A stretch of DNA of 47,618 nt, taken from contig JAZDJU010000043.1 in the NCBI GenBank assembly GCA_043803685.1, positions 1-47,618 on the forward strand. The letters are read 5' to 3'. Numbering within the stretch: position 1 is the first letter of the stretch; the number at the start of each line of letters is the position of its first letter. This document shows positions 1,767 through 3,937 of this stretch, one piece after another. This stretch comes from Candidatus Omnitrophota bacterium. Its GTDB lineage: Bacteria > Omnitrophota > Omnitrophia > Omnitrophales > Aquincolibacteriaceae. The notes below the pieces were generated by a model, which did no database searches, was not told where the DNA came from, and worked only from the letters and a program-made list of their open reading frames with translations. The translations under genes were made by a program, and so were the position numbers.

Positions 1767-2686
1767 ATGGCCCTTTCGCGTTCCTTACCCAACCCCTGAG
1801 AGAGCGCCTCTTTTACGTCTGGATTCATCTTCTGAGAATCCCCCCAATAAAGCGTCCTGTGCGGAAATGGGATCTCGATCCCGAGTTCGTCAAACTTGTT
1901 CTTAAGCCGCCGACGGTATTCCCTGGCGACTTCCCACTGTTTGATTGGCAAAGTCTTCATGCGACACTTAATAATCACGGCAGAATCCGTGAAAGCGTCG
2001 ACCCCCAGCATCTCCATATCCTCCTGGATCAATTTCCCGAAAGACGCATCTTCCCGCATTCCCTTCGCGATGTCCTTCATGACCGCCATCACATCATCCA
2101 CGTTTTCTTTGTAAGCAACCCCGATATCAAAAAGTGCCTGGGAATAGCCTTTGGTGAAATTGATCACTGCCTTGATCTCTCCGTTCGGGATATAGATCAC
2201 CCGCCCCTCGAGATCCCTCAGCATGGTATGCCTAAGATTGAGACCTTCCACCAGACCGCTGAACTCCCCGATCTTCACCACATCATTGATGCGATATTGC
2301 CCCTCCATCAAGATAAAAACCCCGTTGATCACATCTCGGATCAGGTATTGTCCTCCAAAACCGAACGCCAACCCGACGATCCCGGCACCCGCAAGCAGCG
2401 GCGCCACATTGATCCCGAAGTTTTCGAGCAGCATATAAAGACCAAACACGGCTATAGCGACTGTGCCGAGCCACTTCATGAGGTGGGAGAACGTTTTTAA
2501 TCTCAGTGTAGTTTCATCTTCCCGGATGGCCGCTTTTTGCGATAAATGATCCTCGAATTTTTTCAGCCCATATTTAAGGCCGCGAAATAGTAGCCAGGAT
2601 AAACCCAAAATGAGCAGCGTTTTGCCGATCGATCCCACCCAGGGCGTTTCAACAATGTTTTTCCAGTCAAATGTGTTCGGATCCAT
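1763..2686 (-). CDS. mscS: Small-conductance mechanosensitive channel (MscS/YbiO-like)
   Basis: TM helices, then LLAGAGIVGLAFGFGGQYLIRDVINGVFIL, G.VE.LNLRHT.LRD.EG...IPNGEI and GIEIPFP. Confidence 0.93.
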   Translation of the reverse strand: MDPNTFDWKNIVETPWVGSIGKTLLILGLSWLLFRGLKYGLKKFEDHLSQKAAIREDETTLRLKTFSHLMKWLGTVAIAVFGLYMLLENFGINVAPLLAGAGIVGLAFGFGGQYLIRDVINGVFILMEGQYRINDVVKIGEFSGLVEGLNLRHTMLRDLEGRVIYIPNGEIKAVINFTKGYSQALFDIGVAYKENVDDVMAVMKDIAKGMREDASFGKLIQEDMEMLGVDAFTDSAVIIKCRMKTLPIKQWEVAREYRRRLKNKFDELGIEIPFPHRTLYWGDSQKMNPDVKEALSQGLGKERERAI

Positions 2687-2758
2687 CTCTTCCCCCTGGT
2701 CAGATGCTTGTTCTTTCTTGATTGGAAAGAATGCAGATAACTACGAGTCCTAGCCCGA

Positions 2759-2872
2759 CTACGGATTAGATTTCTTCTTCTCGTCCATTCTAGACTTGAT
2801 GGCCACATAAACAAAAAAGCTAACCACCGCAACGATCATTATATAGACGATCAAATCCCCTAACCATCTCAT
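2759..2872 (-). CDS. Small single-pass membrane peptide, 37 aa (MRWLGDLIVYIMIVAVVSFFVYVAIKSRMDEKKKSNP)
   Basis: Hand translation; purine-rich SD (AAGGGGGAG) upstream of the ATG; hydrophobic helix with a charged tail; lies between the riboswitch terminator and mscS. Confidence 0.6.
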   Translation of the reverse strand: MRWLGDLIVYIMIVAVVSFFVYVAIKSRMDEKKKSNP

Positions 2873-2907
2873 ATCAGCTCCCCCTTTTTGCCAGGGGCCC
2901 ATAAATG

Positions 2908-2949
2908 AAAAGGGCCACTATCTGACGGTTCAATGTCAGATGGCGGCCC
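2908..2949 (-). terminator. Intrinsic terminator in the 5' leader (riboswitch expression platform)
   Basis: Minus strand: GGGCCGCCATCTGAC-attgaacc-GTCAGATAGTGGCCC followed by TTTTCATTT. Confidence 0.85.
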
Positions 2950-2990
2950 GACCATCTTTATCGCTCCTCTTGGAAAAAATTCCAAGACCC
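2942..2990 (-). ncRNA. Candidate alkali-cation (Na+/Li+) riboswitch aptamer, nhaA-I/DUF1646-like
   Basis: Minus strand GGGU-CUUGGAA-uuuu-UUCCAAG-AGGAGCG-AUAAAGAU-GGUCGGGCCGCC. The 5' GGGU + hairpin + 3' GGUCGGGCCGCC layout matches my recollection of these motifs. The 3' end overlaps the terminator, and the downstream genes are osmotic-stress genes. Confidence 0.7.
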
Positions 2991-3124
2991 ATTTATAGTT
3001 TCATTTTCCTTCGCAACTCTCCAAAAATCAAGCCCTATCTATCTCTCTAAAAATTGACTCGTAGAAATTCCACCCGCCTCCATCACGCCATCCAGGAATA
3101 AATAACCCTTTTCCTCCGAACTGT

Positions 3125-3403
3125 TGTATAATCCCCGCCGTCGCAATAGAGCTTGGCGATCCCCTAGGTGACACCAACACTGTCCTTGTCTCAGCTTTTT
3201 CTCTAAAGGGTGACAAGGACTGCCCCAATTTCCGCTTCACGGAAATTGACAAGAATTGGGACTGAAACAAGCCCGTCTTACTTGCACCGTGTCGATTAAG
3301 CGCACGCACTTGAATACACGGTAGAGTGCTGTGAACCCTTGTAATGACAGCACTGAGAACCTCTCGAATAAGTGATCTACCCAGAACCTTCACAAAGAGG
3401 CTT
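3125..3403 (+). promoter_or_regulatory. -10 box (TGTATAAT near 3125-3132) and a ~270-nt multi-hairpin 5' leader of the carD-like gene
   Basis: Inverted repeats GTCCTTGTC/GACAAGGAC (3182-3220), ACCGTGT/ACACGGT (3286-3322) and AGTGCTGT/ACAGCACT (3325-3354). Confidence 0.45.
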
Positions 3404-3937
3404 ATGAAAAAAGAAAAGATCGAGAACGGTCATTTGCTTTATCACACGATCCACGGCCTCTGCCGCGTCGAAAGAGTGACACGCCCCATCCCACCCAGTC
3501 AGGGAGGCTTGTCCTATTCCCTAGTGCCAAAAGTCGCGACAAAAATGAAAGCTCGCTTCGTCATTTCGGCGGCGGACCTGCAAGTCTCCGGTTTTCACGG
3601 CCTTGTTTCACCCAAGGAAGCCAACAAGATCCTGAACTATCTGAAAGCGGGGAATGTCAAAGAACGTCCCGAAACGGCTCTGTCCCCCGACCTTCAGGAC
3701 CAGGCTTGGGGTCTGGCCCGAACCCTGCAAACCTTTGCCTATGAAAAATTCGAGGCGAAAGACCAAAGAAAACGTCAGGCACTCGAACGTTCGGCCAAAG
3801 GCCTTGTGGGTGAACTTTCCTGCGTATTCAAAACGACCTTAAAGAAAACGGCGGACAAGGTCCTTAAGAACCTGGGACGCACGTCGCGGATCAACCCTTT
3901 GGTCCTTTCGGCTGTAGCACTCGCCGGAGAAGATTAA
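3404..3937 (+). CDS. CarD-like/TRCF-RID domain transcription factor (divergent)
   Basis: N-terminal LYHTIHGLCRVERV resembles the CarD VYPxHGvgxI motif; helical C-terminus (ALERSAKGLVGELSCV). Start moved to ATG 3404 behind AAGAGG. Confidence 0.65.
   Translation: MKKEKIENGHLLYHTIHGLCRVERVTRPIPPSQGGLSYSLVPKVATKMKARFVISAADLQVSGFHGLVSPKEANKILNYLKAGNVKERPETALSPDLQDQAWGLARTLQTFAYEKFEAKDQRKRQALERSAKGLVGELSCVFKTTLKKTADKVLKNLGRTSRINPLVLSAVALAGED

Follow-up and report, generated by a model that had tools for sequence, protein, structure and literature searches.

An nhaA-I family RNA with an overlapping predicted terminator as a putative Na+-responsive ON switch of an osmoprotection operon in an uncultured Omnitrophota bacterium

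The RNAs closest to the one described here belong to the nhaA-I motif (RF03057; PMC5737381; PMC9646797), whose members from three proteobacteria prefer Li+ (Li+-I riboswitches) and for most of which ribosome-site control was supposed by the authors (PMC9646797). A terminator-bearing variant from Desulfobulbus propionicus, named Na+-II, is activated by Na+ and was called rare and limited to Deltaproteobacteria, and its C54U mutant, M4, responds to Li+, Na+ and NH4+ (PMC9646797). K+ was rejected by both family RNAs probed, the assays being run in 100 mM KCl, which did not switch them on (PMC9646797). The D. propionicus RNA opens its P1 stem with a C-G pair and the three tested Li+-I constructs with G-C (PMC9646797 supplement), which is also the first P1 pair of the Rfam nhaA-I consensus; treating G-C as a Li+-I feature is our own reading and not a determinant stated in the portions of the PMC9646797 text considered here. 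The Na+-I riboswitch (DUF1646 motif, RF03071), told apart from the nhaA-I class by the P1 base and the P2 loop (PMC9646797), has the osmoprotectant genes dapB and ablA under its control (PMC9337991).

Both the nhaA-I family and its link to otsA and mscS are already published: Supplementary Table I of PMC9646797 counts otsA 16, glycosyl transferase 5 and mscS 3 times among 944 nhaA-I RNAs, and the authors left open whether the otsA/trehalose-linked RNAs answer to Li+ or to Na+. Literature searches, which covered subscription journals thinly and may have missed later structural or specificity work, returned by title no relevant paper on Omnitrophota riboswitches, no crystal structure of a sodium riboswitch, and only unrelated papers for riboswitches in connection with otsA and Na+ (by title) and in a search limited to 2023 onwards.

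The window, that is the whole stretch of 47,618 nt analysed here, carries on its minus strand a genuine member of this family. The original prediction of a candidate riboswitch at this place was borne out by the Rfam scan, in which RF03057 matched at 2990-2938 over model positions 1-55 with 45.7 bits against a gathering score of 37 (E 5.5e-6 over the whole window), the sole gathering-level Rfam match in the whole window; a degenerate aptamer pattern hit the window a single time and none of 100 shuffles. The RNA begins with GGGU at 2990, has AGG at 2968-2966 after P1 and a P2 with GGUCGGGCCGCC, and sits in the 5' leader of a peptide gene, mscS and otsA, all on the same strand (Table 1). The DUF1646 motif, offered as an alternative family, was rejected, as RF03071 gave no match at the site and was absent among the matches up to E 10 in 2500-3400 of a laxer Rfam scan; a search of the genome with this model, in which 150 of 580 candidates were scored, returned three weak matches, all away from the site. 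Two further Rfam matches in 2500-3400, with E values of 2-5, were taken as chance.

Table 1. Features of the riboswitch locus in the window.
Feature	Position	Strand	Basis
Predicted promoter: -35 TTGATT (3031-3026), 17 nt, -10 GAAAAT (3008-3003)	3003..3031	-	read from sequence
nhaA-I motif aptamer (Li+-I / Na+-II riboswitch family)	2938..2990	-	RF03057 45.7 bits, cut-off 37
P1 stem, 7 bp: C2986-A2980/U2975-G2969	2969..2986	-	Rfam alignment and sequence comparison
J1/2 linker, 3' of conserved AGG	2958..2965	-	5-14 nt, variable across 30 loci
P2 hairpin, loop CGGGCC; U2951 = 'position 54' base	2938..2957	-	WT/M4 template comparison
Predicted intrinsic terminator hairpin, 8-nt loop	2912..2949	-	folding energy, conservation
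Terminator U-tract UUUUCAUUU	2903..2911	-	sequence
37-aa single-pass membrane peptide	2759..2872	-	homologous ORFs behind related riboswitches
mscS-family mechanosensitive channel, 307 aa	1763..2686	-	PF00924, PF21082, PF21088 above cut-off
otsA, trehalose-6-phosphate synthase (GT20), cut by contig end	3..1766	-	PF00982 E 1.8e-65

The first P1 pair of the window RNA is C2986-G2969 and not the G-C of the Li+-I RNAs, while its position 54, mapped as the base 5' of CGGGCC by comparison of the wild-type and M4 templates (PMC9646797 supplement), is the U of Li+-I and not the C of Na+-II. What is informative in this RNA is the first P1 pair, together with the U.G pair that closes P2, and not the linker, which had been suggested as a possible mark of a variant: over 30 loci it ranged from 5 to 14 nt and was different in almost all, it varied in both P1 types in metagenomes, and the outer letters assigned to it belong to the conserved AGG and to P2.

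The stem of the predicted terminator consists of 14 pairs (one G-U) and one C.A mismatch (2942/2919), and the hairpin alone was calculated at -25.7 kcal/mol (z -6.1), with 0 of 200 shuffles equally stable. An element ending at 2908 had been proposed, with a 15-bp terminator, a U-tract and GGGCCGCC as the 5' arm; hairpin and U-tract exist and GGGCCGCC lies within the arm, but the pairs number 14 with the mismatch, GGGCCGCC is only the first 8 nt of a 15-nt arm (2949-2935) and the U-tract runs past that end to 2903. A simple terminator scan did not list the 2949-2912 hairpin, probably because of the C.A mismatch. The claim that aptamer and terminator are mutually exclusive was supported, since 12 nt of the 5' arm lie inside the Rfam aptamer, in the P2 loop and the P2 3' strand; a bound aptamer would thus block termination, as in an ON switch. 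Folding agrees with the exclusion: the free leader adopts the terminator form at -40.3 kcal/mol as against -30.3 kcal/mol with P2 enforced, and when the leader is folded step by step, P2 prevails until the transcript end is at about 2923 and the terminator once it has come to about 2920. An intrinsic terminator overlapping the aptamer, as predicted here, is also a feature of Na+-II. A hairpin over the ribosome site of the peptide (2910-2865) was rejected as not significant (z -1.4). Upstream, we infer a promoter that ends 12 nt before the aptamer; the spacing TTGACC-17-GAAAAT was seen again in 9 of the other 29 loci, and the putative promoter was absent from the output of a consensus promoter scan.

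Compared with the Na+-II RNA of D. propionicus (the 'hypo' RNA, PMC9646797), the window RNA has in common the GGGUC...GAGG base of P1, the CGGGCC loop, the terminator layout, with the P2 loop and 3' strand drawn into the 5' arm, and the predicted ON logic; it differs in carrying U54 instead of C54, which makes it the natural equivalent of M4, in its host, most likely Omnitrophota rather than deltaproteobacterial, and in preceding peptide-mscS-otsA rather than a hypothetical gene. With Li+-I RNAs and the nhaA-I motif it shares the whole-model Rfam match, U54 and the otsA/mscS context, whereas it opens with C-G, has a terminator in place of ribosome-site control and lacks the typical association with nhaA, which is not downstream and was not found in the genome (91% complete). 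Na+-I riboswitches show a similar two-hairpin layout, antitermination and osmoprotectant gene control (PMC9337991), but the window site has no match to their covariance model. Judged by its sequence, then, the window RNA is a natural hybrid of the Na+-II P1 base and terminator with the U54 of Li+-I and M4. As it fails C54, the sole stated sequence test of Na+-II, and is atypical for Li+-I, we file it as an nhaA-I member that is likely Na+-II-like.

The peptide gene is preceded by a purine-rich ribosome-binding site at 2884-2878, and a longer 47-aa version starting at 2902 was set aside because the homologs begin at the 2872 Met. Homologs of the peptide were found behind 10 related riboswitches and once in another phylum, with a near-invariant SR following the hydrophobic stretch; no member of the 12 had a Pfam match better than E 0.03, and none had a significant one in NCBIfam. 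Unrelated small hydrophobic ORFs (30-55 aa) stand directly behind these riboswitches at L034, L049, L074, L109 and others, so that a leading membrane peptide appears as a recurring theme. A divergent 177-aa ORF (3404-3937, plus strand), whose start may be CarD-like, matched nothing in Pfam or NCBIfam.

The operon probably continues beyond the window, through two contig joins. On contig C78 are found the end of otsA, otsB, a treS in two parts and the beginning of a cyclic-glucan-synthase-like gene (GH94) that extends into C80. The start of the window's contig (C43) overlaps the end of C78 over 380 nt at only 90.6% identity, an imperfect overlap that leaves this join probable and not proven, and the start of C78 equals the end of C80 over 45 nt. 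The arrangement suggests one cluster of a first riboswitch, the peptide, mscS, otsA, otsB, treS, a GH94 gene of about 2900 aa and a second riboswitch; it also suggests that sequence from two strains is mixed in the bin (6.6% contamination). In C78, treS is split into two overlapping frames (L153:5722-4045, minus strand), by a frameshift or an assembly error; it is whole in L155, L156, L157 and L160, and peptide/mscS-otsA-otsB-treS are contiguous in three relatives (L155-L157). The second nhaA-I RNA of the genome (C80:34149-34098, minus strand; L002/L154) scored 44.7 bits, has a terminator as well and precedes genes for a 117-aa DUF2007-like protein, hflK, hflC, a CNNM-like protein and a type II P-type cation ATPase. 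An hflK gene also lies behind the nhaA-I RNAs of L018, L022, L032, L231 and L292, and is not named in the nhaA-I gene table of the PMC9646797 supplement.

The catalytic part of OtsA aligns over its full length with solved trehalose-6-phosphate synthases and is preceded by an N-terminal membrane/extracytoplasmic sensor-like region of about 260 aa, laid out as a helix, an extracytoplasmic Cache/PAS-like domain, a helix and a HAMP-like region (window 1766-981, minus strand; L155:3370-5595). An AlphaFold model of this region, built from 12 sequences (pLDDT 71.5), best matched the extracellular sensor domain of WalK (E 1.6e-7) and Cache-type chemoreceptor ligand-binding domains, and the sCache_3_2 and HAMP scores of its homologs were weak. 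All 81 of 81 proteins matched by the region (407-1297 aa) carry PF00982. The NCBI names given to close homologs of an OtsA from the same genus make Omnitrophota the most likely host. The 260 aa are predicted from the model to form a membrane-anchored sensor; a literature search, sparse in subscription journals, found no paper on a receptor-type (Cache-fused) trehalose-6-phosphate synthase.

The original prediction had also counted on conservation upstream of homologous operons, and both the element and its association with the operon were found in relatives. RF03057 matched in 24 of 61 related genomes, the own genome included (32 matches, 30 loci analysed); across the phylum it was found in 43 of 150 genomes. 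None of the 30 loci has a break in the first five P1 pairs, and pairs 2-5 show compensatory changes: pair 2 is C-G in 14, U-A in 15 and U-G in 1, pair 3 is G-C in 8, A-U in 13 and U-A in 9, and the first pair is C-G in 28, U-G in 2 and G-C in none. Position 54 is U in 29 of the 30. Terminators passed a strict test at 28 of 30 loci as against 11 of 150 shuffled controls, this test being used for the counts quoted here after a looser one had passed 72 of 300 shuffled controls, and compensatory pairs occur in the distal part of the terminator stem. Within 1.5 kb, osmolyte or mscS genes were found at 24 of the 30 loci and the hflK module at 4, with no reference match at 2 and nhaA at none. Seventeen further loci of the phylum gave a similar picture (G-C first pair 0, U54 16, terminator 15, otsA or mscS 9, nhaA 0), so that nhaA is behind none of the 47 phylum loci considered. 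Of the riboswitch-bearing relatives, 22 of 23 have a GT20 gene above cut-off, as do 15 of 37 without the riboswitch, counts in which kin are not independent. In one relative the nhaA-I RNA precedes dapB (L158), and in one the riboswitch operon ends in a K+/H+ antiporter (L157).

Outside the relatives, a scan of GTDB genomes with a pattern restricted to the C-G P1 type found at least 119 stretches, some of them the same DNA as loci in the set of relatives. The matches listed number 130, or 127 after removal of a duplicate locus (L091, two matches) and a chance match without P1 (L075), and include records from Omnitrophota, Elusimicrobia, Verrucomicrobiota, Desulfobacterota/Deltaproteobacteria, Nitrospirae, Acidobacteriota, Planctomycetes and others. 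Position 54 is U in 115 and C in 12 of these 127 listed matches, and strict terminators were found in 68 of 113 with U54 and 10 of 12 with C54 (two lacked downstream DNA). Candidate RNAs with the Na+-II-type P1 base and a terminator, combined with U54, are thus common across many phyla, against the description of the form as rare and deltaproteobacterial, and such members may already be contained in the taxa/gene supplement of PMC5737381. Among the 74 listed GTDB loci with at least 700 nt downstream, osmolyte/mscS genes were assigned at 41, other cation transporters at 8, nhaA at 1 and no match at 24, with a gene reference set that was built largely from these same loci and missed two nhaD genes found later. 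Other, Na+-linked genes behind the C-G type are nqrE, NhaD, a Na/Ca exchanger and DUF1646.

A metagenome control with a pattern open to both P1 types yielded at least 120 stretches, and 110 of 124 matches listed passed the P1/P2 filter (63 C-G, 47 G-C). Terminators were found, among the matches listed, in 47 of 62 C-G-type RNAs versus 2 of 46 of the G-C type (shuffles 8 of 186 and 10 of 138), a contrast confounded by host composition, since the downstream G+C of the listed loci was 0.45 and 0.61, respectively. Among the same listed matches nhaA followed 1 of 32 C-G-type versus 7 of 25 G-C-type RNAs (Fisher p 0.016, without kinship correction), and osmolyte/mscS genes showed no enrichment with the C-G type (6 of 32 versus 3 of 25, p 0.72), leaving P1 type unsupported as a predictor of osmolyte genes in this sample. 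Behind G-C-type RNAs, too, there are otsA, gpgS-like, Na/alanine symporter and oadG genes; this, together with the lack of osmolyte enrichment, suggests that the P1 pair may track lineage and not ligand. Position 54 was likewise not supported as a predictor of gene class, as C54 stands before nhaA (L103, L237), nhaD (L101), mscS (L069, L290) and otsA (L024), and a triple with U54 (L058) precedes nhaD. That the sole two nhaA-linked C-G-type RNAs listed (L103, L237) carry C54 makes gene context a loose guide to the ligand.

Several arrays and further contexts were observed in these sets. Tandem C54 (Na+-II-type) aptamer pairs, each aptamer with a terminator, occur at L101:3001-3168, before nhaD, and at L165:822-1042; Table 3 of PMC9481103 places Na+-II among the classes never seen in tandem. 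U54 aptamer-terminator units form triple arrays at L058:501-793, L126 and L077; L058 closely resembles the D. propionicus Na+-II RNA, and arrays of its type are probably the triple mentioned by White et al. (PMC9646797). The same RNA type is present in Verrucomicrobiota and Acidobacteriota loci (L046, L052, L057, L106), mostly without a terminator, where it precedes genes for a GpgS-like glycosyltransferase-phosphatase and sucrose-phosphorylase-like genes (a glucosylglycerate-type osmolyte pathway).

It is directly established that the RNA belongs to the family, that P2 overlaps the terminator arm, that both are conserved, and which genes lie downstream. On these grounds, and by analogy with the D. 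propionicus RNA, we consider it probable that the nhaA-I riboswitch is a transcriptional ON switch, mainly Na+-responsive in the cell, for a salt-protection operon. P1 and P2 would fold first during transcription. Without the ion, the more stable terminator would take the P2 loop and 3' strand, and RNA polymerase would stop near 2905, in the U-tract; ion binding would hold P2 long enough for readthrough into the peptide gene, mscS, otsA and probably otsB and treS. Trehalose offsets osmotic load and MscS serves as a release valve once salt falls, which would be the output of the switch. Na+ is most likely the natural ligand, given a layout that matches a Na+-activated RNA, a regulon made up of genes for osmolytes and genes linked to Na+, and a genome (91% complete) in which no nhaA was found. 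Strict Na+ selectivity is opposed by U54 and by the mixed result of the metagenome control; with U54, relaxed selectivity is expected in vitro (Na+, Li+ and NH4+, like M4), Na+ being the relevant ion in nature.

The same U54 leaves room for readings with another ligand. The RNA might sense the overall ionic or osmotic load (K+, NH4+ or all small monovalent ions together) and not Na+ as such, since the downstream genes respond to osmotic stress whatever its cause, cells usually meet an osmotic upshift first by taking up K+, and a K+/H+ antiporter closes the operon of L157. The broadened response to Li+, Na+ and NH4+ that U54 brought about in the D. propionicus background points the same way (PMC9646797), but the rejection of K+ by both probed RNAs, with 100 mM KCl leaving the assays off, and Na+-specific genes such as nqrE among the downstream genes make this reading unlikely. 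Still less probable is a true Li+-I riboswitch, in which Li+ would be the natural inducer and the trehalose genes would be raised against Li+ stress. U54 and the Rfam family are those of Li+-I RNAs, and White et al. raised this reading for otsA (PMC9646797); nhaA, however, is behind 0 of 47 phylum loci and was not found in the own genome (91% complete), the regulon comprises osmolyte synthesis, MscS, NhaD and Na+-NQR, the P1 base and terminator match a Na+-responsive RNA, and the Na+ response persists even in M4 (PMC9646797).

The advantage of about 10 kcal/mol for the terminator form in the folding model would also suit a relic aptamer, or merely a constitutive terminator, with no ion-dependent control. 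This we regard as very improbable: none of the conserved aptamer bases has been lost, P1 covaries, 28 of 30 loci keep the overlap, and a conserved operon would be silenced by a constitutive stop lying 12-90 nt past the promoter. As to the preferred reading, a mainly Na+-responsive ON switch, it may form part of a broader scheme, which taken as a whole we put forward only tentatively. In it, the form with a pyrimidine-purine P1 pair, U54 and a terminator would be the main body of a large Na+-sensing subclass inside the 'Li+-I' alignment, running salt-stress regulons (trehalose, glucosylglycerate, MscS, NhaD, Na+-NQR, HflKC) in Omnitrophota, Elusimicrobiota, Verrucomicrobiota, Desulfobacterota, Nitrospirota and others; the choice between Na+ and Li+ would lie with the first P1 pair and not with position 54; and the riboswitch would here supply the first of two tiers of control. 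As the second tier, a trehalose-6-phosphate synthase of the receptor type would be tuned to an outside signal through its extracytoplasmic Cache-like domain and HAMP linker.

Taken alone, the window RNA is one more member of a validated riboswitch family whose gene context was tabulated by its discoverers. As a natural version of the M4 mutant it is a test case for the Li+ versus Na+ question in otsA-linked nhaA-I RNAs, and its terminator provides a simple in vitro readout. The ion it chooses bears on whether many 'Li+-I' RNAs are Na+ sensors and on which base decides. Follow-up would be most worthwhile for the sensor-fused OtsA and for the wide spread of the U54/terminator form, and the locus shows how uncultured Omnitrophota likely regulate osmoprotection.
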